This document shows positions 5,167-57,493 of a stretch of 64,000 bases of DNA, piece by piece (position 1 is the first letter of the stretch; every line of letters begins with the position of its first letter). Below the pieces are notes generated by a model. It saw only the letters and a program-made list of their open reading frames with translations, was not told the DNA's origin and did no database searches. The stretch lies in assembly GCA_966250335.1 (NCBI GenBank), contig CBINGZ010000024.1:10842-74841 (forward strand), read 5' to 3'. Position numbers and translations under genes: made by a program. This stretch comes from an uncultured bacterium (GTDB taxonomy: Bacteria > Bacteroidota > Ignavibacteria > OLB7).

Positions 5167-6467
5167 GCGAACCTGAAGCGCCCGGCGCCCTGCCGGCGGA
5201 TGTCGACGTGATCCCGGCGGCTCCCCCCCGGCGCCGTTTCTTCTGGGGGCGCGATCTTCTCCTTCTCTGGCTGGGACAGGTCGTCTCGGGGCTTGGAGAT
5301 TCGCTCGTCTCGATGGGCTTCGTTTTCCTCGTGCTGGAGATGACCGGCGACGAACGCGCTCTCGGCGGCTTCCAGTCGGTCGCCTACCTGCCGATCGTCC
5401 TCTTCGGGCTCGCCGCCGGTGTCTACGTCGACCGCCGCGACCGCCGCCGCGTGATGCTCGCCGCCGATCTGGGCCGTGCGATCATCCTCGCCTCGCTCCC
5501 CCTGGCCGCCATGACCGGAATTCTGGGGATCGGATACGCCGGGGTTGCCGTGGTGATCTCCTCGGTCTGCATGACCTTCTTCAACCCCGCCTACAACTCC
5601 GCGCTCCCCGTTATCGTCGACGATCCGTCGAAGCTGTTCGGCGTCAATGCGGTGATGCAGTCGTCGCGGCAGTTCGCCTCCATTATCGGCCCGGGCCTCG
5701 CCGCCTACGGGATGGCGCAGTGGGGGCCGCTTACGCTCCTCTCGGCCAATTCGGTCATCTATCTCCTCTCGTTTCTCTGCGTCTACTTCATCGCCCACGA
5801 TCTCCGTTCTACATCTGTCAAGGGGGCGATCTCCCTCCGGGAGCTGCGGAGCGAGATCGCGGCAGGGCTCAGGGCGGTCAGAGGGACCAGGGGGGTGCGT
5901 GAACTCTTCGCCTTCACGCTCGCCAACAACGTGCTGCTGATGGGGCCGGCGCTGGTGGCGACACCGCTTCTGGTGACACAGGTCTTCAAGGGGACGATGG
6001 CCGATTTCGCGATGATCCAGCTGATGTACGCCTGCGGGATGGCGATCACCAGCCTGGTGATGCACAGGCTTCCGCCGATCCGGACTATCGGAATACTATG
6101 GGCGGTGGGGATGATGCTGGACGGGTTCACGTTCGTGATCTACCTCTTCGCCGATACGCTGCCGCTCCTCTACGCGGCGGCGTTCGTTCATGCGCTGGTG
6201 GTCCCGTTCCTCATTATACCTCGCACCACGATCATGCAGAGGAAGCTCCCGCCGGAGATGCTGGGGCGCGCCTTCGGGTATGTCGATATCGCCGTGCTCG
6301 GCGTGACGTCGCTCTCGGCGCTGATCGCCGGGTTCGTGATCAAGGAGATCGGTCCTCTGGAGACGATGGTGTGGGGAGGAGGGACCGCCGGGGTCGTCGG
6401 TCTGGTGGCGCTGGGGTTCCGGTCGATCAGGGAGATCCGTTTCGACGATCATGCGGTCGAAGGGTAG
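5163..6467 (+). CDS. MFS transporter (DHA3/macrolide efflux-like)
   Basis: About 12 TM helices; GxxVDRxDRRRVM MFS motif A; start overlaps the PASTA gene stop. Confidence 0.85.
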   Translation: MSEPEAPGALPADVDVIPAAPPRRRFFWGRDLLLLWLGQVVSGLGDSLVSMGFVFLVLEMTGDERALGGFQSVAYLPIVLFGLAAGVYVDRRDRRRVMLAADLGRAIILASLPLAAMTGILGIGYAGVAVVISSVCMTFFNPAYNSALPVIVDDPSKLFGVNAVMQSSRQFASIIGPGLAAYGMAQWGPLTLLSANSVIYLLSFLCVYFIAHDLRSTSVKGAISLRELRSEIAAGLRAVRGTRGVRELFAFTLANNVLLMGPALVATPLLVTQVFKGTMADFAMIQLMYACGMAITSLVMHRLPPIRTIGILWAVGMMLDGFTFVIYLFADTLPLLYAAAFVHALVVPFLIIPRTTIMQRKLPPEMLGRAFGYVDIAVLGVTSLSALIAGFVIKEIGPLETMVWGGGTAGVVGLVALGFRSIREIRFDDHAVEG

Positions 6468-6498
6468 GTGGCGGTCGGAGGGTAGGGGACGTTTCCCG

Positions 6499-7431
6499 CT
6501 ACCACTCCTCGCCCGGCCCCATCACGGTCGCCTCGCGATCTATCCGGTCGAGCGAGAACCCGGCGACAAGATCGCGGGCCGATACCGGTTCCGGCCGGTC
6601 GATCACTCCGCAGCTCCAGGCGAGCCGGCCGATCAGCTCCTCCGGGGTACGACCCGCCGCGCGCAGTTCCGCCACGGAGACCGAACCGTGCCGCTTGGCG
6701 AGGCGGGTGCCGTCGGAGGCGAGGATGAGAGGAACATGGGCGTAGAGCGGGGGGGGAGCGCCGAAGGTGCGGAAGAGAAGGATCTGCCGGGGGGTGGAAT
6801 CGAGAAGGTCGTTCCCGCGGAGGACATGGGTGATCCCCATCGCGATATCATCAAGCACCACGGCCAGCTGATAGCTGAAGACCCCATCGGCTCGCGCCAC
6901 GATAAAATCTCCGGCCGCCGCGTCCACATCCTCCATGATCGTTCCGGCGACCCCGTCGTGGAATTCCACGGTCGTCCCCGGCTCCACTCTGAACCTCCAG
7001 GAAGGCTCCTTGATCTCCGCCCGTTCGGCGCGGAGGGTGGGGGAGATATCGCGACATGTGCCGGGGTAGCGGTTCCCGGCCGATCCGTGCGGCGCGCTGG
7101 CGATCTCCTTCAGTTCCCTGCGCGAGCAGTAGCAGGGGTAGATCAGTCCCCGGCGCTCCAGATCGGCGAGCGCATCGCGATAGAATCCGAAGCGGGAGGA
7201 TTGAACGTACTCCGGGGCCGGCTCATTGTCCCAGTCGAGGCCGAGCCAGGTCAGATCCCGCACGATCCCCTCGGAGGCGCCCGCCGCGGCGCGCGCCCGG
7301 TCGAGATCCTCGATCCGCAGGATGATCTCACCGCCGAGCGAGCGGGCCTGCAGCCAGGCCAGGAGAAACGAGCGGGCGTTGCCGATATGCAGGTAGCCGG
7401 TGGGGCTGGGTGCGAGTCTGCCTCGAAACAT
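6499..7431 (-). CDS. gluQ: Glutamyl-Q tRNA(Asp) synthetase
   Basis: RLAPSPTGYLHIGN (HIGH), LRIEDLD, YPCYCSR, RLAKRHG (KMSKS-like); 310 aa with no anticodon-binding domain. Confidence 0.9.
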   Translation of the reverse strand: MFRGRLAPSPTGYLHIGNARSFLLAWLQARSLGGEIILRIEDLDRARAAAGASEGIVRDLTWLGLDWDNEPAPEYVQSSRFGFYRDALADLERRGLIYPCYCSRRELKEIASAPHGSAGNRYPGTCRDISPTLRAERAEIKEPSWRFRVEPGTTVEFHDGVAGTIMEDVDAAAGDFIVARADGVFSYQLAVVLDDIAMGITHVLRGNDLLDSTPRQILLFRTFGAPPPLYAHVPLILASDGTRLAKRHGSVSVAELRAAGRTPEELIGRLAWSCGVIDRPEPVSARDLVAGFSLDRIDREATVMGPGEEW

Positions 7432-10702: not shown

Positions 10703-11169
10703 ACACCCAGTCAGAACAACAAGAGAGTTACAACATCCAGACCATGAGCGAACCACTACGCGTTCTGTTCGTCTGCACCGGCAATTCCGCGCGCAGCCAG
10801 ATGGCAGAAGGGCTGCTGCGTCATTTCGGCGGGGGGCGGTACGAAGTCCACAGCGCCGGCACGAATCCGACATCCCTTCGTCCGGAGGCCGTCGAGGTGA
10901 TGCGGGAGGCGGGCATCGACATTTCGGGACAGAAATCCAAGTCTCTGGAGGAGTATATCGGACAGGATTTCGATTACGTCATCACCGTCTGCAGCAAGGC
11001 CAAGGAGAGCTGCCCGGTCTTCCCGGGCGATACCGATCATATCGCATGGGATTTCGACGACCCGGCCGAAGTCCAGGGCTCGGAGGAGAAGCGCATGCAC
11101 GAGTTCCGGCGCGTCCGCGACGAGATCCATCAGCGGCTGAGCCTCTTCATGTCGGCGGATCACCGGTAG
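10699..11169 (+). CDS. arsC: Arsenate reductase (thioredoxin-type, LMW-PTP fold)
   Basis: VLFVCTGNSARSQMAEG P-loop plus VITVC...ESCPVFPG resolving cysteines and WDFDDPA; start overlaps the aquaporin stop (alternative ATG at 10744). Confidence 0.85.
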   Translation: MNTQSEQQESYNIQTMSEPLRVLFVCTGNSARSQMAEGLLRHFGGGRYEVHSAGTNPTSLRPEAVEVMREAGIDISGQKSKSLEEYIGQDFDYVITVCSKAKESCPVFPGDTDHIAWDFDDPAEVQGSEEKRMHEFRRVRDEIHQRLSLFMSADHR

Positions 11170-11235
11170 ATCGTTGTAGGATGTTTTGTCCGATACCTGT
11201 GCCGGACGGTCCGGTATAGATATCGGATAACGAGA

Positions 11236-11271
11236 GGAAGCAGGCGACGGCCGATACCGTCGCCTGCTTCC
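11236..11271. terminator. Hairpin between convergent arsC and SDR genes
   Basis: Perfect 15-bp stem ggaagcaggcgacgg / ccgtcgcctgcttcc with a 6-nt loop. Confidence 0.65.
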
Positions 11272-11273
11272 GT

Positions 11274-12233
11274 TCATGCGATTTCCGGGAACGGGATTTC
11301 CACGATGCCGTCGAACCAGTAGCTGTAGAAGGTCTCGTCGCACGCCTTGATCGGCTTGCCGAACGCCTCCGCGAAATATCGTCCCCAGTGCGGAGTCGCT
11401 CCGTCGATATCGGTGAACCCGTACTCCTCGGAAAGCCCCCACGAGCTGAACACACGACCGTTCTTCCGCGACAGATCGGGATCTGCCGCCAGCGCCGCCA
11501 CGGCGCGCCCCACGAAGAAGGGGGTCTCCGACGCGATGAAATGCGGGTCCGTCGCCGTCCCCTCCCGCCAGTTCTCGACCGTCACGCCGTAGAGCTCCAG
11601 CATTGCCTCCGACCGGAGATATCCCGGTGTGACCGCCAGGGCGGTCACACCGTGCCGGCGCAGATCGCGCGACATGGCGAACGCCAGGCGGATGACCGAC
11701 GTCTTCACAAGATCGTAGTACAGAGTGCCGCGATAGCCGAAGCTGTCGCCGTCGGTGATCTCCACGATCAGACCGCTCCCGCGCTCGATCATCAGCGGCG
11801 CTGCATATCGGCTTGTGATAATATGCGAGTTCACCGCCCGCTCGATCATCAGCAGGCCGTTCTCCAGCGAATGTTCCCAGAAGGGGGCGGTGAACTCGGT
11901 GAGAGCATCGCCGCCCCATACGTCGTTGACCAGGATATCGAGCTTCCCCTCATCGCTCCTGATCCGTTCGAACAGTCCCTGCACCTGCTCCGGGAGGGTG
12001 TGATCCACCTGTTCGTATCGTCCGATTCCTCCATGCGCCGTGACCATCTCGGCCGTCTCTTCTATCGTCTCCGGGCGGTTCCCGGTCGCCGGGTTCCCCC
12101 GGACGCTCCGTCCCGTGCAGTAGACCGTCGCCCCTGCCTCCCCCAGCATGCACGCTATGCCGCGCCCGGCGCCGCGGGTCGCCCCCGCCACCACGGCGAT
12201 CTTCCCTTCAAGCTTTCGTGTCGGGTGTTCCAT
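11274..12233 (-). CDS. Short-chain dehydrogenase/reductase (DHRS1-like)
   Basis: GATRGAGRGIA Rossmann motif, LDILVND, YDLVK catalytic YxxxK. Confidence 0.9.
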   Translation of the reverse strand: MEHPTRKLEGKIAVVAGATRGAGRGIACMLGEAGATVYCTGRSVRGNPATGNRPETIEETAEMVTAHGGIGRYEQVDHTLPEQVQGLFERIRSDEGKLDILVNDVWGGDALTEFTAPFWEHSLENGLLMIERAVNSHIITSRYAAPLMIERGSGLIVEITDGDSFGYRGTLYYDLVKTSVIRLAFAMSRDLRRHGVTALAVTPGYLRSEAMLELYGVTVENWREGTATDPHFIASETPFFVGRAVAALAADPDLSRKNGRVFSSWGLSEEYGFTDIDGATPHWGRYFAEAFGKPIKACDETFYSYWFDGIVEIPFPEIA

Positions 12234-46882: not shown

Positions 46883-46966
46883 TGGAGGGCTCTCACGCCC
46901 CGTAACATTGTGGCGTACTTCAAGGCCGGGACCTCCCCGGACCTGCTTACCAGCGAAGATTACGCC

Positions 46967-48718
46967 ATGTCCTACTTCGATATCGTCTTGCGATGCGCAT
47001 CCCGGAGCCTTCGGGTCGCTCTCTCTCTCTGGTTCGCCGCGGCCCTCTCGGTCGGGAGTGTGTCGGCGCAGTTCCTCGTCAGGAACATCAACACGGCGGG
47101 TGGTGGAGCGAACGGCTCGACCCCCGCGAAGCTCGTCGATCTGTCGGGGACCATCTTCTTCGCCGGGACCGCGGCGGGGACGGCACGGGAACTCTGGAAG
47201 AGCGACGGGACCGAAGCGGGGACGCTTCTGGTGCGCGACGTCAATCAGGGGAACAGGAACGGCATCGGCGACAACCCGGAACTGGTCGCGGTCGGGGAGA
47301 CGATCTTCTTCATCGCGACCGACGGGGTCTCCGGTTACGAGCTCTGGAAGAGCGACGGGACCGAAACCGGAACTATCATGGTAAGAGATATCCGCCCCGG
47401 GGCGGAAAGCTCCATGCCCGATATCGACGGTCTCCCCGCCGCGCTTACCATCTCCGGTTCCACCCTCTACTTCGTGGCGAACGACGGAACGCACGGGTTC
47501 GAACTCTGGAAAAGCGACGGCACGGCCGAGGGGACGGTGATGGTACGGGACCTCAATCCCGGAGGGGATGCCTTCAGCGACCAGGAGATCCCGATGATCG
47601 ATATCAACGGCACGATATTCTTCGGCGCCGACGACGGAACGAGCGGCGCGGAGCTCTGGAAGAGCGACGGCACCGGGGCGGGAACCGTACCGGTGAAGGA
47701 TATCTACCCCGGCGCGGAGTCGTCGGTCCTGAAGTGGTTCGTCGATCTGGAGGGTACGCTTCTCTTCTCCGCGCTCGACGGCGCGACGGGAGTCGAGCTC
47801 TGGAAAAGCGACGGCACGGCCGGTGGGACCACGATCGTGCGCGACATCCTCGACGGCACCGGAAGCTCCGTTCCGACCGGCCTCACCCTTCTCGACGGCT
47901 TCGTCTATTTCGCCGCGGCCGACGGCGACAGAGGGATCGAACTCTGGAGGAGCGACGGCACATCGGCCGGCACGACGATGATCGAGGTGCATCAGGGGGC
48001 CGCGGGATCGCTCCCCCTCTTTCTGACCCCGGTCGGCGACAGGCTCTATTTTCTTGCGAACGACGCCGAGCATGGTGACGAGCTTCGCCTCTACGATCCC
48101 TCCACGGGCGCCGTGACGCTCGTCCGGGATATCAACCCCGGCACGCCGCACGGGCTTCTTCGCGGCCTCTCGCAACTCGTCTCGTTCGACGGGAAGCTCT
48201 ACGTCGGCGCGCGGGACGGAGGGGCCTCGGCGGTCGGCCCGCTCGAGCTGGAACCGTGGGTCAGCGACGGGACGGAGGCCGGAACCCGGCTTCTCAGGGA
48301 TATCTATCCCGGCACCGTCGGCTCGGCGCCGAAGGAGTTCACGGTCTCCGGCGAGAATCTCTTCTTCTCCGCAAAGGACGATCGGAACGGACAGGAGCTC
48401 TGGGCCCTGAAGCGGAGCGGCTCATCGTCGACACCCCCTGTCGTATCGGGCGATGCTTCACTTCGCATCTCCCGGACCACTCCCAATCCCGCCAGGGAGA
48501 CGATCACGATCTCATACACGCTGGCGCAGGCGGGAAAGGCGACGATGACGCTCCACGATATTCTTGGAAGAAGATCCGCGATCCTTCTCGACACCTATCT
48601 TCCTGAAGGATCGCATACGGTGGAATGCGACGTCCGGGATCTTCCCGCCGGTCTCTACTCATGCCGGCTCGTCGCGGGGGATGCGATCGTATCACGAACG
48701 GTGGTTGTCCGAAAATAA
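46967..48718 (+). CDS. ELWxxDGT repeat protein with T9SS type A sorting domain
   Basis: Signal peptide; six ELW[KR]SDGT repeats plus degenerate copies; C-terminal PNPARE...LPAGLYSCRL. Confidence 0.92.
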   Translation: MSYFDIVLRCASRSLRVALSLWFAAALSVGSVSAQFLVRNINTAGGGANGSTPAKLVDLSGTIFFAGTAAGTARELWKSDGTEAGTLLVRDVNQGNRNGIGDNPELVAVGETIFFIATDGVSGYELWKSDGTETGTIMVRDIRPGAESSMPDIDGLPAALTISGSTLYFVANDGTHGFELWKSDGTAEGTVMVRDLNPGGDAFSDQEIPMIDINGTIFFGADDGTSGAELWKSDGTGAGTVPVKDIYPGAESSVLKWFVDLEGTLLFSALDGATGVELWKSDGTAGGTTIVRDILDGTGSSVPTGLTLLDGFVYFAAADGDRGIELWRSDGTSAGTTMIEVHQGAAGSLPLFLTPVGDRLYFLANDAEHGDELRLYDPSTGAVTLVRDINPGTPHGLLRGLSQLVSFDGKLYVGARDGGASAVGPLELEPWVSDGTEAGTRLLRDIYPGTVGSAPKEFTVSGENLFFSAKDDRNGQELWALKRSGSSSTPPVVSGDASLRISRTTPNPARETITISYTLAQAGKATMTLHDILGRRSAILLDTYLPEGSHTVECDVRDLPAGLYSCRLVAGDAIVSRTVVVRK

Positions 48719-50683: not shown

Positions 50684-51667
50684 TCACTCTCTCCCCGGCA
50701 TCTCGATCGAGATCACCTGGTCCAACCCTCGTTTGAATCCATCGGAATCGGATAATACTCGCGTCCTGGGCTCCACGAAGGGGAAGCGGAGCCCGCGGGC
50801 CCCTTCGTCCGGCGCCGTCGTTCCGTGACGGCGTACGATATGTTTATGGGATGTGGCCTCGGTATTGGTCGACATCTTCAGCAGAGGCGTCTTCACCTCC
50901 GCTATGCCGTGCAGCGCCGACCATTCGGCGGGCCAGGAGAGGACTTCCAGCAGCAGATCGACCTCCTCGGCGTAACCGAGCTCGCGCCCCAGATCGAGAA
51001 GTCGTCGCCCGAGCGCGGCGCTCCGTTCGCACGAGAGGCTGCAGGGGAGATGAGGGAGCGCACCGAGGCCGAGCCGGGCCAGCATGAAGTTCGTCTCGAC
51101 GGGACCGTCGATCTCCAGCGTCCGATCGTCGATCGCTTCCGGAGCGCTCGACAGCGCCGCCTGCCACATAGAGTCGACGGCGTCACATTCCTTCATGCCG
51201 CGATAGAATTCGACACAGCACGGCGGGTAGCCGAAGATCTCTCCCAGCGCCTCGACATCATCAGCTTCCCACGCCTCCCGGAGCCTCGGCAGAGTTTCGG
51301 CGCGGGCCACGGCGATATGGAAGAACATTGAGGCGGGATCATTCCCACGGTCGAAGAACGGTCCGCCGGAGAGGAGCTCCATTTCGAGCGGGAGCCCTTC
51401 CAGACCCGACTCCGCCCATCGTTGTCTGGCCGTGCTGAATGTCCCGAGCGACTCTGCGACGATCGCCCCTTCCCTGATGCCGTGCTCCACGGAGCGCCAT
51501 AGTATATCGCGCCATGCCGTCGTGATCCTTCGGAACCGGGGCTCCCAGATCCTCCGTGCCGTATCGCCGACCCAGCTTACACGGACGAAGGGGTGAAGAG
51601 AGAAGTCGAGCGTCTCGAGCTTCCGGAAGCGGGAGCTGCTCCCTGCGTCGATCGCGATATTCGTCAC
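50684..51667 (-). CDS. Unknown Cys-motif protein (DUF483-like), last gene of the RiPP operon
   Basis: GTG 51667 overlaps the rSAM stop (GTGA); 327 aa; motifs LGEIFGYPPCCVEFY, PHLPCSLSC, SWPAEWSALHGIAEVKTP. Confidence 0.75.
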   Translation of the reverse strand: MTNIAIDAGSSSRFRKLETLDFSLHPFVRVSWVGDTARRIWEPRFRRITTAWRDILWRSVEHGIREGAIVAESLGTFSTARQRWAESGLEGLPLEMELLSGGPFFDRGNDPASMFFHIAVARAETLPRLREAWEADDVEALGEIFGYPPCCVEFYRGMKECDAVDSMWQAALSSAPEAIDDRTLEIDGPVETNFMLARLGLGALPHLPCSLSCERSAALGRRLLDLGRELGYAEEVDLLLEVLSWPAEWSALHGIAEVKTPLLKMSTNTEATSHKHIVRRHGTTAPDEGARGLRFPFVEPRTRVLSDSDGFKRGLDQVISIEMPGRE

Positions 51668-52869
51668 AGCAGTTCCTCCGCCGGTTGAAGAGCAGTATCG
51701 TGAGCCGAGCCTTCCGTGACGCGACGCATCGCCTCGACGATCGGTATCGACATGCCGAACCGCCACCCGTCGAGCATCGCCTGTTCGACGGCGGGCCGGG
51801 AGGGGTGGAGCGAGAGGGGAAGGGAACCCGCGTCGAGGATCTCCTTCTCCAGCCGTTCGTAGAGTCCCATCCAGACATGGCAATGTTCGGAGCGGTTTCT
51901 CCAGTCCCCCTCCAGCGAGGTGCCGGGACAGTTCCCCTTGCACATCAGGAAGAACCGGCACTCCCGGCAGCCGAGATATTCCTGCGGTGTATGGTAGAGT
52001 GCGATGTATCGTTCGAACCCTTCGCTCTCCGACTTCACGAAGTCTATGCCGTCCTTGTTGGTGCGCCCGCAGTTGCTCCTCTGTCCGTTCCCCTCGATCC
52101 CCTGAACGGCTCTCGTGGTGTACGGATCGCAGCCGGCCCAGACGCATGAGCAGACTTCGTCGCGGCCGTGGAGAAGTCGGCGCATCTCCTGGAAGAGATC
52201 GAAGCGGAGCGTGGTGAGGCGCTCGTTCTCGAACATCAGGAACGACTCGAGCATGGCAAGATTTTCCTCCGGAGACATCGCGTACTTCTCCCGGATCGCC
52301 CCCTGTTCCACCTCCAGCAGATGGAGCCGCGCGGAGGTCACTCCCATGCGTTCGATCTCCAGCAGCCATTCGAACAGGAGCGGCAGCCGTTCCGGTGATC
52401 CGTTGCCTCGATGCATGGTGAGGATAAGGGCCGGAGGAATTCCCTCGGCGCAGAGTCGACGTATCGCATTGTGAGTCGCCTCGGTCGCGGCGCGCGTCCG
52501 CTCCAGCGTTCCCACCCATCGGACGTCGTTCAGCGCCCCGGGACCGTCCACCGATACCCCAACCTGGACGCCGTACGCCTTGAACATCCTGATATGTTCG
52601 TCGTTGACGAGCACGCCGTTGGTCTGTATCTGATTACGACCGAACCGCGAGTACCCCCACGACCAGAGCTCCTCAAGGTCCCGTTCCGGCACCAGCAGCG
52701 GCTCGCCGCCGAAGAGGGTGAACGGCTCCCCGGCCGCCTCGATCGCCCGCATGATCCCCGGAAGATCGTACTGATGGAGGACATTGGCCGCGTCGCGCTG
52801 CGGGTTCTGGTAGCAGTACTGGCACTGGATGTTGCATTTCACACCCAGGGGACGCACTTCGACGCTCAT
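51664..52869 (-). CDS. Radical SAM/SPASM domain enzyme (putative peptide maturase)
   Basis: CNIQCQYC, FGGEPLL, IQTNG, GVSVDGP; C-terminal Cys array including C-x2-C-x5-C-x3-C (CRECRFFLMCKGNC). Confidence 0.9.
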   Translation of the reverse strand: MSVEVRPLGVKCNIQCQYCYQNPQRDAANVLHQYDLPGIMRAIEAAGEPFTLFGGEPLLVPERDLEELWSWGYSRFGRNQIQTNGVLVNDEHIRMFKAYGVQVGVSVDGPGALNDVRWVGTLERTRAATEATHNAIRRLCAEGIPPALILTMHRGNGSPERLPLLFEWLLEIERMGVTSARLHLLEVEQGAIREKYAMSPEENLAMLESFLMFENERLTTLRFDLFQEMRRLLHGRDEVCSCVWAGCDPYTTRAVQGIEGNGQRSNCGRTNKDGIDFVKSESEGFERYIALYHTPQEYLGCRECRFFLMCKGNCPGTSLEGDWRNRSEHCHVWMGLYERLEKEILDAGSLPLSLHPSRPAVEQAMLDGWRFGMSIPIVEAMRRVTEGSAHDTALQPAEELL

Positions 52870-54857
52870 GGACGCTCCGCTGGTTGAAGTTCGTCGATCG
52901 TGTCGGGAGTGAACCGCTCCTCGGTCGACGGTTCGGCAGGTGGATCGAGAAGCGAGCCGACGGGGTTTCGCTCCAGCTTCTCCGGCGGCCGCACCAGCCT
53001 GCCGGTTTCGACCACCAGGGAGAGGGCCCGGCCTCCGTCGACGAGAATGTATCCCAGATCGACAAGTCCGTTGAATGTCGTCGTGTGATCCTTGTCGCTC
53101 TCCTCCGTCAGCTTCGCGAGCGTCCGTTCCACCTGCGCCGGCTCGCGGAACAGCTCGAGCATCCGCAGCTCATCGGGCTCCACGAACCTCCAGCGCTCGC
53201 GCGAGCAGAAGCGGGTATCCTTGATCGCGGCCAGCGGTCCGATATGGATCAGCATCAGGCAGGGGGGCTCTTCGCGATTGTCGGCGCGTCGTCGCCAGTT
53301 CGCGACCGCCTCGCGTATCGGCGCCACGTAATCCCCCGGATCGACGTCGGTGGGCGTGCCGTCGAAGAAGTAGGCGATCTCGGGAAGGAGGGAGGGATCG
53401 ATGTCGTGGATCACTCCGTAGGCCGGTGTCGGGACCACGTCGACGAAGCCGAGCCTGGCCGACTGTTCGTAGTAGGGACTGAAGCGGTCGAGCCGGACCT
53501 GCGATATTCCCGACGGAGGATCGAGATGTTCGAGCAGGAGCATCACCTCGGCCATTCTCCGATACTGTTCCCCGCGCTCCCCCGGAAATCCCCACAACAT
53601 GTTCCAGATCGATCGTATGCCGATCTCCTGACAGGTGCGCAGAAGCCGCACGTTCTGGAGCATCGACACCCCTTTCTCCATCAGGTTCAGGATATCGTCG
53701 TCCAGGCTCTCGATGCCGGGCTGAATCCACGTCACGCCGCCGCGCGCGATCTGCGTGAGCTGCTCGGCGGTCATGTTCGACTTGATCTCGTAGAAGAAGG
53801 TGAGCGGAGGAACCCGTTCGGCAAGGGGACGGAAGACCGTCTCCACATGCTGCATGTGCATGATGTTGTCTGCCGCCTCGAAGAGATCGACCCCCCATCG
53901 GGAATGGAGAGTATCGATCTCCTCAAGTATCCTGGCGGGAGATTTTACCCGGTAGGTCATTCCCTTGCCGTTCAACCCGCAGAATCGGCAGTGCTTCTTT
54001 GCTCCCCACCAGCAGCCGCGCGACGTCTCGAAGAGCATCCCCACATCCACGCGGTCGCGGTAGCTCATCAGCGAGAGGGTGCCGAAGTAGTCGTCGAAGC
54101 TGGGGATCGGAAGTTCGTCCAGGTCGGAGATGAATTCAATATCGCTGCTCGATCCGTTGAGTGAAATCGATACGGGGGGGAGGGAGATCGTGCGCCCTTC
54201 ATCCCCGCGTTCCCGCCTGAAGACCCCGACTCCGTCGCCCGGCGGAGAGTCACCCGCCAGAATGCGCTGAGCCGCATCGGGAAACGATCTGTCGGATTCT
54301 CCCGAGAAGACGTAGTCGATGAAGGGATAGGCCGTCAGCAGCGCCCGTCCCATCGGCCCTTCGCAGTTGGCGCCGCCGAAGCAGAGAACGACCCCGGGGT
54401 TGAACTCCTTCAGCCGTCGCGCGATCGCCAGCGACGCGCAGGTCTGCTGGAAGCTGCTGGAGAAGCCGACGATCTGGGCGCCGGAGTCGGCCAGCTTCCA
54501 TGCCGAGCGCTCGACGAACTCATCGGTCAGCTCGCGCAATTGCAGGACCTTCCTGAACCTGTCGGTTCCGAGATAACCTTCGAGCCATCGGATATACTCC
54601 CGTTCCCCGGCCGTTCCGCGCTCGCCGTTCAGCGTACGCGCGAAGGTCCACTCGCCGATGAGAAACTTGGTGGCTGTACGCTCCGCGATATATTCGGTGA
54701 TCTCTACTCCCGCCGTTTCGGCAAAGCGCATGTTGAGATATTCTATCCGCGTCGCGATTCCGAGCGCCTCCAGCGACCCCTTCAACGTGCTGACGCCGAG
54801 CGCGGGGCGCACCACCGACAGGTAGGGGGCCGTGACGAAGATGACGGAATCGCTCAT
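52866..54857 (-). CDS. Cobalamin-dependent RiPP maturation radical SAM C-methyltransferase (TIGR03975-like)
   Basis: True start ATG 54857 (ATGA overlap), 663 aa; RPALGVSTLK, B12-binding IVGFSSSFQQ...FGGANCEG, ETSRGCWWGAKKHCRFCGLNG (CX7CX2C), IQPGIESL, WNMLWGFPGE, RLDRFSPY. Confidence 0.9.
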   Translation of the reverse strand: MSDSVIFVTAPYLSVVRPALGVSTLKGSLEALGIATRIEYLNMRFAETAGVEITEYIAERTATKFLIGEWTFARTLNGERGTAGEREYIRWLEGYLGTDRFRKVLQLRELTDEFVERSAWKLADSGAQIVGFSSSFQQTCASLAIARRLKEFNPGVVLCFGGANCEGPMGRALLTAYPFIDYVFSGESDRSFPDAAQRILAGDSPPGDGVGVFRRERGDEGRTISLPPVSISLNGSSSDIEFISDLDELPIPSFDDYFGTLSLMSYRDRVDVGMLFETSRGCWWGAKKHCRFCGLNGKGMTYRVKSPARILEEIDTLHSRWGVDLFEAADNIMHMQHVETVFRPLAERVPPLTFFYEIKSNMTAEQLTQIARGGVTWIQPGIESLDDDILNLMEKGVSMLQNVRLLRTCQEIGIRSIWNMLWGFPGERGEQYRRMAEVMLLLEHLDPPSGISQVRLDRFSPYYEQSARLGFVDVVPTPAYGVIHDIDPSLLPEIAYFFDGTPTDVDPGDYVAPIREAVANWRRRADNREEPPCLMLIHIGPLAAIKDTRFCSRERWRFVEPDELRMLELFREPAQVERTLAKLTEESDKDHTTTFNGLVDLGYILVDGGRALSLVVETGRLVRPPEKLERNPVGSLLDPPAEPSTEERFTPDTIDELQPAERP

Positions 54858-55978
54858 AGGACGATCCTCCCGGCGGATGCCTCCGCGGGTTCGGCGCCGG
54901 CTGCGGGAATCGGTTCCCGCTCGATCGGAGGGGCAGGAGGTGTGAAGATGTCGAGAGCGCCGAGCACGGCGGCCTGCACGTTCAGCGACTGCATCTTCCC
55001 CGGCAGAGCCTTGTGAAGCAGCTCCACGTTGCGCGGGTTCCCGAACAGAACATCGCATGCGTTGCATATCCCGTCGAAATCGTCGTCGACGCAGGGACGC
55101 TCGGTTCCGGCCGTGATCTGCCGAAGCATCGCGACAGGCCCTTCGAACGCCAGCCACTGCATGACAGGGTCGGCGTAGGCGTTCCGGATCATCGTATCGA
55201 GGCTCTCCTTTCCCAGCTCGCCGATTCCCAGCCCATCGCGATACGGTATGACGCCGCAGCATGCAAGGACCTTGCCGTCCGGGTTGACGGAGAACTGACG
55301 GAGCATGGAGAGGCACGGTCCCTTGTACCCCCGTGCGCTGGCGCGGCGTCTCTCCATCTCCTCCTCGGATATGTTCTCGAGCGCACGCCCAGTGCTGTTG
55401 ATGAACGTTTCGTAGATATGGGCCTGGCCGCCTCCCCCTTCCGGCAGTCCGAGCAGACGGGCGATGTAGGCGCCGTCGATCCGCGTATCGGGTCCGACGA
55501 CGACGGCGATCTTCACCTCCAGCCCCAGTTCTTTCGCTGCGCGATATGCATGGACGACGCTGCTCTCCTTGAGGTATTCGGCGTGCTGGTCGTCGTACGA
55601 TATGGTCAGCCGTTCCAGACCGGCGGCGGCGAGCGGGGTCAGGAGGGAGAGGGCGCGCGCTTCGGTGGTGGCCCAGAACGCGCTGGTCACGACAGCGGAG
55701 CCGATGCCGTAGGAGCGTGCGTGACGGAAGGCGCGTTCCATGATATCGGGATGAAGGAACGGGTCCCCTCCGACGAAATCGAGTCGGCCGACGGAATCGA
55801 TACGCGCGGCGTCGTCGATCGCCGCCAGGATCTCCTCGGCCGAGAGATGCGCGATAAAGGTCATGTCGGAGCTGAAGCAGCAGTGGGAACAGCGCAGGGG
55901 ACAGCGATAGGTGATGTTGATCACAAGCTCCTGCGGAGAGATGCGGCTGGGGGAAGCAACGGTGCGTGATGTCGCCAT
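54854..55978 (-). CDS. Radical SAM enzyme, YydG/EpeE peptide epimerase-like
   Basis: CPLRCSHCCFSS, VTSAFWA, LTISYDDQHA, DGKVLACCG, FDGICNACDVLF parallel the B. subtilis YydG motifs as recalled (CxxxCDHCCFSS, NGFWG, LTISYDEYHA, DGEIYPCCS, FSSICGVCGSLF); ggagg RBS. Confidence 0.8.
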   Translation of the reverse strand: MATSRTVASPSRISPQELVINITYRCPLRCSHCCFSSDMTFIAHLSAEEILAAIDDAARIDSVGRLDFVGGDPFLHPDIMERAFRHARSYGIGSAVVTSAFWATTEARALSLLTPLAAAGLERLTISYDDQHAEYLKESSVVHAYRAAKELGLEVKIAVVVGPDTRIDGAYIARLLGLPEGGGGQAHIYETFINSTGRALENISEEEMERRRASARGYKGPCLSMLRQFSVNPDGKVLACCGVIPYRDGLGIGELGKESLDTMIRNAYADPVMQWLAFEGPVAMLRQITAGTERPCVDDDFDGICNACDVLFGNPRNVELLHKALPGKMQSLNVQAAVLGALDIFTPPAPPIEREPIPAAGAEPAEASAGRIVL

Positions 55979-56080
55979 TGGAAACGCTCCTCCATGAATA
56001 GTCGTGTAGGCGGCCGACGTCCTTCAAAACCCGGATCGGGACGGGCTCGTCACATGAATCGCGGGACGATCCGATCGAAA

Positions 56081-56113
56081 GGTCGTCACCCCACTGAAGG
56101 CGGGGTGACGACC
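56081..56113 (-). terminator. Stem-loop between precursor genes and maturase genes
   Basis: 12-bp perfect stem ggtcgtcacccc / ggggtgacgacc, 18 bp after the precursor 2 stop; only a short T-run follows on the minus strand. Confidence 0.65.
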
Positions 56114-56131
56114 ATATCGCAACCCGAATGA

Positions 56132-56371
56132 TCAGCCCACGTCGACGTGAACAATCGCCGACTGAGCGCCGGCGGCGTTCGCCGAAGCGAGCCTTTTCTG
56201 ATTGGCGTGGTTCCGGATCCTCTCGGCGGTCTCCGGATCGACTTCGATGCCCATATGAGCAAGCACCTCGTGCGGATCATTGGCGAGATCATCCAGGATG
56301 TTCTCACGATCCTTCAACGCGCCTGCTCTCTCATGGAGCGTCGCAGTGTCGGTGTCTATGACGATTCTCAT
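56132..56371 (-). CDS. Putative RiPP precursor peptide 2 (79 aa)
   Basis: aggagg RBS, ATG 56371; MRIVIDTDTATL...LANDPHEVLAHMGI...AQSAIVHVDVG; paralog of precursor 1. Confidence 0.85.
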   Translation of the reverse strand: MRIVIDTDTATLHERAGALKDRENILDDLANDPHEVLAHMGIEVDPETAERIRNHANQKRLASANAAGAQSAIVHVDVG

Positions 56372-56575
56372 TCGCTTGCCTCCTGCAATTGAGGTAGTGG
56401 CAGAGGGGGGATTCCGCTCCGTACGGTGCGGGCAATCCGATCCGCTGCCGGACGAGATATACGTCGGCTTTCGCGCGGAGGCGCCGAGACCGGCATGACC
56501 GGAATCGGTGAACACCGCGCGCAACGGTTCGGCGCGGGATCGACCCGACCGTTCGGCCGGATCTACCCGGTTCGA

Positions 56576-56800
56576 TCAGGCGTCGATATGAACGATGGAA
56601 GCCTGAACCGTTGAGTTCGACTTCGAGACGCCGGCATAATGGCGCAGAGCCTTTGCCGTTTCGTCATCGGCGGGGAGACCGAGCTGACGCAGCACACCGT
56701 GCGGGTCAACCGAGAGGCCTTCGAGAATGGAAGGATTGCTGCGGAGGCGTTCGCCGGCCAGTTCCAATGTTTCGACGTCGGTGTCGAGATTGAACTTCAT
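56576..56800 (-). CDS. Putative RiPP precursor peptide 1 (74 aa)
   Basis: aggag RBS; MKFNLDTDVETL...LSVDPHGVLRQLGL...VQASIVHIDA; first gene of the operon. Confidence 0.85.
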   Translation of the reverse strand: MKFNLDTDVETLELAGERLRSNPSILEGLSVDPHGVLRQLGLPADDETAKALRHYAGVSKSNSTVQASIVHIDA

Positions 56801-57493
56801 GATGATGACTCCTGTGTAGTATGAATATGAACCCGTTTCGTAATATCGCTGTTGGATATTCTAAAACGGATTGAACAAGGCGGAATCATGCCCGTCCCGA
56901 AATCGTCACATGAGAATCATGTGGCGCCGCGGTACGGGTCCATCGGAAGAAACGTCTATGAAAACCGGTAGGGGGCTGGTCGGAACACGATAAAGGGGGA
57001 ATTCGGCAGGGGCATGCGAAACCGTGCGGATATCGCGGCCCCGACGTCCGATTCGGCCTGTTGTCCTTGAATGAGAGTTGAGAAGGAAGTGGGGAGCCGG
57101 GATGTCGTTCCCCCGTGCGCCTCGACTGCGCACCCTGCATCACGTACGGCTGACGACGCCTTCCGGAAGGCATCATTCACAGATATTGCGGGCTCACGTC
57201 GTGGAATCGACGTTTCCGATCTCATCGCAATACGTATATCAACATACGATATCGTATTGCAATGGACAAGGCGGTTACACTTTGAAATACACCGCCATCG
57301 GCAGGTTCCCCCACCCGGTCATAACACCCTATCTTTCTCTCTCTTCTTTCCTACCTCTGTGTCCTCTGTGACTCCCTCTGGTTATTCCTCTTCTCACCGG
57401 ACATTGACAAATGTCATGGTACACCCTCCACCATCCCCCTAGTTTAACCCCGGCTCCAAGAACTCGACTCCCGACATTCACACGAGCGCCGTT

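Follow-up and report, generated by a model that had tools for sequence, protein, structure and literature searches.

A two-module radical SAM operon of RiPP type in an uncultured Ignavibacteria genome and the widespread SPASM-partner pair that it contains

Overview

The window analysed here is a stretch of 64,000 nucleotides from an uncultured bacterium of the Ignavibacteria (contig CBINGZ010000024.1, positions 10,842 to 74,841), in which positions 50684-56800 hold an operon for two short peptides, three different radical S-adenosylmethionine (rSAM) enzymes and a protein that the original prediction had left as unknown. We found that this gene cluster is the fusion of two separable modules, the first made of a leader peptide, a YydG-like enzyme and a B12-binding C-methyltransferase, the second of an rSAM/SPASM enzyme and the formerly unknown protein. 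The latter is not an extra but the obligate partner of the SPASM enzyme, and the SPASM-partner pair represents a large family tied to the motif His-x-Asp (HxD), mostly outside clusters of the present kind. We propose, with a probability of roughly 0.65, an operon of the type that yields peptides made on ribosomes and modified post-translationally (RiPPs), whose two modules would converge on the last 5-7 residues of the precursors through epimerisation, C-methylation and a modification of His-x-Asp; all of this chemistry is what we infer.

The list of open reading frames (ORFs) and a direct reading of the minus strand confirmed six consecutive genes, exactly at the predicted coordinates: two short peptides come first, followed by four genes joined by overlaps (ATGA at 54854-54857, ATGA at 52866-52869 and GTGA at 51664-51667). 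The genes are:

56576-56800, minus strand: preA, precursor peptide A, 74 aa; AGGAG about 9 nt ahead of the ATG; tail ...QASIVHIDA
56132-56371, minus strand: preB, precursor peptide B, 79 aa from an internal ATG after AGGAGG; tail ...QSAIVHVDVG
54854-55978, minus strand: YydG/EpeE-like radical SAM enzyme (rSAM 1), 374 aa; candidate peptide Calpha-epimerase
52866-54857, minus strand: B12-rSAM C-methyltransferase of the TIGR03975 family, 663 aa; ATGA overlap at each end
51664-52869, minus strand: rSAM/SPASM enzyme (rSAM 3), 401 aa; no N-terminal RiPP recognition element (RRE); proposed His-x-Asp modifier
50684-51667, minus strand: SPASM partner protein, 327 aa; GTG start; CC...HxPCxxxC; no methyltransferase domain

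Recurrence of the cluster and separation of its modules

The predicted RiPP-type cluster was borne out and its synteny is conserved, as the same four enzymes occur with homologous precursors in six other distinct loci (L024, L069, L077, L082, L086 and L087, where L numbers are our own; L088 is the same sequence as L087 in a second record), and homologues of preA adjoin these enzymes in each of them. L024, L069 and L077 came from a scan of 80 genome loci fetched with a partner-family profile and belong to a Pyrinomonadaceae metagenome-assembled genome (MAG) of the Acidobacteriota, an Alcanivoracaceae MAG and Marinicella sediminis F2 (Gammaproteobacteria), respectively; the other three came from a nine-locus metagenome scan seeded with the YydG-like enzyme. 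The gene order is precursors, YydG-like, B12 and pair in the window, L024 and L082, and pair, precursor, YydG-like and B12 in L069 and L077, with two precursors per locus in the window, L082 and L087.

The modules also occur apart. Indeed, L089 (12.4 kb) combines the YydG-like and B12 enzymes with a homologous leader and an S8 peptidase; genes for the SPASM enzyme and the partner are absent, and the precursor core of this locus (...SVAVAVGVAVAVAIP) contains no HxD. The core of L085 (...ALAVTVVVSAVL) is likewise devoid of HxD, in a contig that ends inside the B12 gene and that is, with L083, L084 and L090, one of the contigs of 1.3-3.7 kb which are too short to judge gene content. In L045, the B12 enzyme and a fused SPASM-partner protein are intact and the YydG-like gene is a C-terminal fragment (1256-1648, query residues 242-348) lying directly before the B12 gene, with no precursor visible up to the contig end. 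HxD and the SPASM-partner pair therefore co-vary, and cores of aliphatic residues (Val/Ala/Ile) accompany the YydG-like and B12 enzymes; on this basis we assign module 2 to H-x-D and module 1 to Val/Ile. A role of the B12 enzyme as a methylator of His or Asp was considered and rejected, because L089 and L085 retain this enzyme with cores that are free of His and Asp.

Some of these loci carry additional genes. In L086, an extra ORF resembling, by eye, a pyridoxal phosphate (PLP)-dependent decarboxylase of the ornithine/diaminopimelate type lies between the B12 and SPASM genes (about 11000-12050). The partner gene is immediately followed, in L024 (9552-10424), L045 (5778-6689) and L082 (13960-14817), by one for a 285-303-aa protein that has an N-terminal W-x-R-[VI]-A-E-P-Q motif in common between the loci; the L024 and L082 copies gave no Pfam match, and the L024 copy used as query found no counterpart in the window genome. 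Further B12-rSAM paralogues stand near the pair in L024 (1-1727, minus strand, E 9e-82 to the window enzyme) and L010 (13525-15414, plus strand, E 6e-100), the latter locus having no YydG-like gene. Finally, the flanking peptidases are an M61 peptidase with a PDZ domain (L024:10424-12214), an M36 peptidase of the fungalysin type (L077:13028-15292) and the S8 subtilase mentioned above (L089:6603-7862).

Precursor peptides

As had been predicted, preA and preB are paralogous to each other (36% identical, BLASTP E 2e-15) and each follows a good ribosome binding site. For preB, the mechanical longest ORF spans 56132-56524, and the internal ATG at 56371, preceded by AGGAGG, was taken as the start. 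preA consists of a leader of about 60 aa and a short C-terminal tail (...ASIVHIDA), and its residues V70, H71 and D73 are invariant in our precursor alignment (A2). Homologues were collected by profile and phmmer searches of the fetched loci, and all 10 precursors of the seven full loci, window included, end in [VI]-H-[IV]-D followed by 1-2 residues; the IVH[IV]D tail of the original prediction thus describes the window pair, and across relatives only [VI]-H-[IV]-D is kept. The cores, namely the last 5-7 residues or so, contain no Cys and are rich in Val/Ile.

In the whole 5.4-Mb assembly, preA and preB are the sole matches of the precursor-family profile. Neither peptide matched an NCBIfam or Pfam model at E≤0.01, the NHLP and Nif11 leader models included, and the L069 precursor matched no NCBIfam family; the L024 homologue, and that homologue only, showed a faint similarity to the NHLP-related TIGR04509 (17.8 bits for a cut-off of 34). 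A word-indexed search of 5.8 billion clusters with preA returned only itself, by a method that is insensitive for short and divergent peptides.

Enzymes of the first module

The best NCBIfam match of rSAM 1 is TIGR04078 (YydG), with 105.3 bits (E 4.1e-30) over profile positions 2-303 of 309, and its nearest solved relative is YydG/EpeE (8ai1-8ai6; phmmer 66.5 bits, E 2e-17, residues 18-320). The cluster motif CX3CX2C is present (C26, C30 and C33 within CPLRCSHCC). C241, the second Cys of "ACCG", aligns with chain residue 248 of 8ai6, which we take to be EpeE Cys223 given a 25-residue tag, an offset deduced from the chain length and from the cluster numbering; C240 and C241 are both invariant in the four aligned orthologues (4/4). 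According to the available parts of two papers, EpeE Cys223 quenches the Calpha radical as a hydrogen atom donor (PMC13012085, PMC5682303). As the score lies far below the equivalog cut-off of 300 bits, epimerase activity is an extrapolation: the predicted YydG/EpeE-type assignment stands as regards the best curated and the best solved relative and does not reach membership of the YydG family, so that we describe rSAM 1 as YydG-like, not as a YydG, and its epimerase role as a candidate one.

The second enzyme was predicted to be a TIGR03975-type B12 rSAM, and it scores above the cut-off of that family over the full length of the model (596 bits for a cut-off of 281.85, E 7.9e-179; residues 5-616 cover all 606 profile positions). 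Read in translation, it carries CWWGAKKHCRFC with Cx7Cx2C spacing, which is the unconventional cluster motif of PoyB and PoyC, the polytheonamide Cbeta-methyltransferases, of which PoyC methylates Val (PMC5682303, available in part). Its match to the Pfam B12-binding domain stays below the cut-off (19 bits for 32.1); the full-length TIGR03975 match would imply that a cobalamin-binding domain is present. No sequence relative of this enzyme was found in the PDB at E≤0.001.

The SPASM enzyme and its obligate partner

The assignment of the third enzyme as rSAM/SPASM holds: it has a Radical_SAM domain with the CX2CX5CX3C signature and eight conserved C-terminal Cys, and it has no RRE domain since its sequence begins directly at the cluster motif. 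It is 47-63% identical to 28 orthologues from many phyla. Its NCBIfam matches to curated peptide maturases and to anSME are weak (AmcB 68.2, DynA 68.2, anSME 66.4 and YhhB 54.6 bits, for cut-offs of 349-450), and by score it is not a member of the anaerobic sulfatase-maturating enzymes (anSME, TIGR03942, cut-off 349.45 bits). The AlphaFold2 (AF2) model, with a mean predicted local distance difference test score (pLDDT) of 86, gave equally good matches to anSME 4k39 (E 1.2e-13, TM 0.59-0.70) and to ChlB, a triceptide synthase (9gm3/9gmc; E 8e-13, TM 0.62-0.70).

The partner family comprises 1372 representative proteins (50% clustering) at E≤0.001 in an exhaustive phmmer search, 508 of them at E≤1e-30; about half are about 300 aa long, and many, of about 500 aa, have a class I methyltransferase domain at the C-terminal end. 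In the 80 genome loci, a SPASM orthologue stands on the same strand as the partner or is fused to it in 76, being directly upstream in 52, overlapping in 13 (where the overlap is due to longest-ORF calls overrunning the true start), 0.6-1.7 kb upstream in 5 and fused in 6; in the remaining four, no more than about 160 bases separate the start of the partner match from a contig end. Fusions behind an rSAM/SPASM domain of the same type are also found in databases (P0061, P0070 and P0077), and other partner fusions involve PqqD (one), a beta-hydroxylase of the alpha-ketoglutarate (aKG)-HExxH type (one) and DUF364 (2 of 10 scanned). The hosts named for these loci belong to Actinomycetota, Acidobacteriota, Chloroflexota, Planctomycetota, Cyanobacteria, Myxococcota, Gemmatimonadota, Nitrospira, Bacteroidota, Pseudomonadota, Paenibacillus and a Nitrososphaeraceae archaeon. 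Within the family, C150, C151 and C213 never vary, while at least 90% of the members retain H206, C209, H253 and E257.

The AF2 model of the partner, a confident one (pLDDT 90.6), found no significant counterpart in the PDB (best E 0.095 with Foldseek and 0.22 in a profile search), which does not by itself establish a novel fold. A wide VIA-align search gave no match above Z 8, the best being Z 6.4 over 104 residues to 2guk, a protein of unknown function. In Pfam nothing exceeded its cut-off, DUF483 (PF04467) reaching 18.4 bits for a gathering score of 25; since this domain is carried by 13-20% of the members in the three nearest atlas clusters listed, a distant relation of the partner to DUF483 is possible, and a literature search on DUF483 returned nothing pertinent, only other DUF numbers. 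The hypothesis of a leader protease was rejected, as the partner is equally present beside leaderless repeat proteins.

A predicted complex of the partner with preA scored 0.59, against 0.04 for the best of three controls; three runs share at least 46% of contacts and the partner pLDDT is at least 64. In calibration, 58 of 80 solved complexes came up to the mark that this score reaches, as did 2 of 110 mismatched pairs, but only 7 of the 80 solved complexes, and both passing mismatches, reached it at ≤0.60, so that the modelled complex is weak support to which we attach little weight.

His-x-Asp motifs beside the pair

A neighbouring frame with at least four HxD in 60 aa was found in 53 of the 80 loci, on the same strand in 50 and within 1.5 kb in 51. 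Within 2 kb of the pair (492 kb in sum) there are 67 such dense segments, against 2 in the rest of these loci, which amounts to 611 kb; none occurs across the 64-kb window. The corresponding proteins contain up to 84 repeats and come from many phyla (L003-L075), for example L032:9561-11006 (481 aa, 81 HxD), L035:9567-11084 and L015:3372-6789, and the HxD-repeat products of Paenibacillus aurantiacus (L015) are a 136-aa peptide (6379-6789) and a 990-aa protein. Short HxD peptides also adjoin the pair, such as those of L074 (ending ...PHIDGHVDGHADI) and L057 (ending ...VHVDHTDGHIDHIG). Many HxD proteins begin, by eye, with RR-hydrophobic-AxA, a twin-arginine-like signal, and those of L032 and L015 matched no NCBIfam family. 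Finally, L064 (6500-6860, beside a fused SPASM-partner-methyltransferase gene) has P-P-Y-D-D / Q-P-Y-D-D repeats instead of HxD, and the motif may therefore be aromatic-x-Asp in general.

Proposed maturation and alternative explanations

In the scheme that we favour, the leader of about 60 aa, distantly NHLP-like, would present the C-terminal tail to the enzymes. The YydG-like enzyme would take the Calpha hydrogen from the Val/Ile beside the His, and Cys241 would return a hydrogen to give D-residues; the B12 enzyme would C-methylate, in a PoyC-like manner, an unactivated sp3 carbon of the same aliphatic residues; and the SPASM enzyme would, with its Cys-rich partner, modify the invariant His-x-Asp. 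Our best guess for this last step is a hydrogen abstraction at the Asp Cbeta followed by C-C coupling to the imidazole C2, which would create a triceptide-like three-residue ring with a change of -2 Da. Links of this kind, from His-C2 to the Cbeta of residue 3, are formed by HaaB, YhhB and HtkB at HAA, HNR and HTK motifs (PMC11499958, available in part). As for leader removal, export and the order of the steps, they are also what we infer. On a wider scale, the SPASM enzyme and its partner might constitute a new two-component maturase that places on His-x-Asp a modification not seen before, such as a ring between imidazole C2 and Asp Cbeta, acting on substrates that range from one C-terminal motif to exported proteins of more than 80 repeats in hundreds of bacterial lineages and some Archaea, and recruited here beside YydG-like and PoyC-like enzymes to give a new RiPP class whose very small core would bear three kinds of radical modification; we hold this extension to be tentative and somewhat short of even odds.

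Several points weigh against the two-module scheme. The YydG-like enzyme falls below the TIGR04078 equivalog cut-off (105.3 against 300 bits), and the SPASM enzyme far under every curated cyclophane-synthase cut-off (AmcB 68.2/425, YhhB 54.6/445, XyeB 39.7/450, GrrM/OscB 50.6/310 and FxsB 41.1/370 bits); in structure, the latter resembles the dehydrogenase-type anSME as closely as it does ChlB. Triceptide synthases are not known to need a separate Cys-rich partner of the kind present here. A C-terminal methyltransferase is found in most orthologous partners, among them those of L024, L069, L077 and L082, and is lacking in the window copy; a tblastn search with three fused homologues found no remnant of it anywhere in the window (all three window matches end by query residue 318), and the window product would therefore be one tailoring step short. 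A search of 40 related genomes with the window partner did not find it, which makes its conservation patchy, and the ORF and domain scan found no transporter or exporter, immunity, or peptidase or protease gene in the window operon. Asp stands at +2 after 1391 of 1748 His in the chosen segments, a count that is descriptive because the segments were selected by that very feature.

The structural tie and the presence of the Cys-rich partner bear on the nature of the His-x-Asp step, which might proceed without a His-Asp C-C crosslink: Asp could undergo an anSME-like oxidation or dehydrogenation, or a decarboxylation, or the imidazole alone could be changed, and the partner would then be a second catalytic component rather than a chaperone. 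anSME is indeed the top structural match of the SPASM enzyme (tied with ChlB) and is among its top NCBIfam matches, the invariant or near-invariant Cys, His and Glu of the partner look like a metal or active site, its frequent fusion to a methyltransferase and its single fusion to an aKG-HExxH beta-hydroxylase suggest further chemistry on the same residues, and the decarboxylase-like ORF of L086 would fit as well. We nevertheless judge this explanation rather unlikely, since His-x-Asp has the aromatic-x-X3 spacing of three-residue cyclophanes, the Tyr-for-His replacement of L064 (Y-D-D) fits a ring-forming residue 1, the links at HAA, HNR and HTK are established in what is available of the paper cited above, and no result points to a specific alternative reaction. 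The end product itself might differ from what we propose. In the biosynthesis of pyrroloquinoline quinone (PQQ) and mycofactocin, a C-terminal core is the target of an rSAM/SPASM enzyme and its small partner, and by analogy the operon could use the end of a carrier peptide to make a molecule that binds metal or resembles a redox cofactor and stays in the cell or the periplasm, instead of a bioactive peptide for secretion. This would agree with the absence of exporter, immunity and protease genes from the window operon, with a core of only about 5-7 residues at the extreme C-terminus and with the metal-ligand-like composition of the His/Asp-rich proteins beside the module 2 family (up to 84 HxD, many twin-arginine-like by eye); but two divergent precursors per locus, as in the window, L082 and L087, are more typical of RiPP natural products, peptidase genes adjoin several of the relatives (M61 in L024, M36 in L077, and S8 in L089, which has module 1 only), and no redox or metal-handling gene is conserved alongside, so that such a product seems improbable to us.

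Less probable still would be a YydG-like enzyme that, in place of epimerising the tail, carries out a different radical reaction at its Calpha or Cbeta positions, for instance crosslinking or dehydrogenation. The function of an rSAM enzyme is hard to predict so far from its reference, here 105 against 300 bits and 66.5 bits to the solved enzyme; however, the co-linearity with EpeE extends over the full length, the Cys223 equivalent is present in 4/4 orthologues, and the Val/Ile-rich cores offer the residues that EpeE epimerises (PMC13012085 and PMC5682303, both available in part). A sactionine-type thioether is excluded because the precursor cores contain no Cys. We retain the convergence of two modules on the precursor tail as our preferred explanation.

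If the chemistry proposed here is true, three different rSAM enzymes would act on a core of 5-7 residues, one by epimerisation, one by C-methylation and one by a modification of His-Asp. Moreover, the SPASM-partner pair, a large family with no curated model and no matching solved fold that lies beside apparently exported His-x-Asp-rich proteins in many phyla, gains a testable substrate hypothesis, and it might yield new His/Asp radical chemistry, a new class of modified metal-binding proteins and, with preA/preB, a compact leader-directed substrate. Cultured carriers exist for both, namely Marinicella sediminis F2 (full cluster) and Paenibacillus aurantiacus (module 2 and HxD repeats).

Genetic surroundings of the operon

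Upstream of preA lies one further feature:

56801-57493, no strand assigned: intergenic region upstream of preA, about 690 bp; presumed promoter region

This region contains no ORF with a family match, and its GC content falls to 0.555-0.586. A sigma-70 scan showed no promoter-like site on its minus strand; the scan gave three promoter-like sites in all, none on the operon strand (1.9 +/- 1.6 in shuffles), and four terminator-like sites (3.4 +/- 1.9 in shuffles), both counts being uninformative. The operon is flanked by genes for a protein with a type IX secretion system (T9SS) tail, a response regulator of the LuxR type and a protein with a BON domain, and by small ORFs that are lipoprotein-like, with no transporter or peptidase gene among them. 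At 46910-48718 on the plus strand, the window encodes a protein of 602 aa in which ELWKSDGT-like motifs recur and which has a Por_Secre_tail domain for T9SS sorting, suggesting a host from the Bacteroidota-related (FCB) group. The stretch is present in DNA runs that are rhizosphere metagenomes from one study, one of which may be its source, and no RNA run was among those listed.

Comparison with known systems

The window cluster belongs among the rSAM RiPPs, and of the leads from this work we find the wider SPASM-partner/HxD system the most interesting. The original prediction recognised neither the enzyme combination nor the precursor family as a described class, and we came to the same result: no model exceeded its cut-off for the precursors or the partner (Pfam and NCBIfam) or for the HxD proteins (NCBIfam), and the literature covered, which leaves out most subscription papers and the supplementary tables of sequence similarity networks, describes no HxD-directed rSAM enzyme, no such partner family and no such enzyme combination.

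Epipeptides (YydF/EpeX with YydG/EpeE, Bacillus subtilis) provide the nearest solved and curated relative of rSAM 1, with CX3CX2C and the Cys223 equivalent in common and with plausible Val/Ile targets in a short C-terminal region, as in EpeX according to the available parts of the sources cited above. They differ in that the window precursor family is unrelated, two further rSAM enzymes are present and rSAM 1 scores only 105 of 300 bits. The yyd operon also includes the YydH protease and the YydIJ ABC transporter, whereas no protease or ABC transporter of these types was seen in the window operon.

With the proteusins and polytheonamides, the cluster shares a TIGR03975-class B12-rSAM enzyme with the Cx7Cx2C motif of PoyB/PoyC (as given in the available part of the source), the combination of epimerisation and C-methylation on aliphatic residues, which is predicted here, and the faint NHLP signal, confined to the L024 homologue (17.8 against 34 bits). 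The differences are a core of 5-7 residues in the window in contrast to about 48, the absence of any NHLP or Nif11 match for the window precursors, and the addition of a SPASM-partner module predicted to target His-x-Asp. The proteusin epimerase is of the PoyD type, whereas the sole epimerase-like gene of the operon is YydG-like and not PoyD-like, no search with a PoyD sequence or model having been made.

As for module 2, anSME is the top structural match of the SPASM enzyme and is likewise a single polypeptide with rSAM and SPASM parts and no RRE; the window enzyme differs by its score (66.4 bits against a cut-off of about 349) and by its neighbours, which are HxD peptides, with no sulfatase gene adjacent. 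Finally, triceptide synthases (HaaB, YhhB, HtkB and ChlB) are, like the present enzyme, rSAM/SPASM proteins beside an aromatic-X-X motif that is often repeated, and ChlB is among the two best structural matches. The window enzyme nevertheless lies below all curated cyclophane-synthase cut-offs, H-x-D is not among the motifs named in the part of PMC11499958 that is available, and the pair is distinguished by an obligate, sometimes fused, Cys-rich partner that matches no solved fold and by putative HxD substrates of up to 481-990 aa with dozens of repeats.

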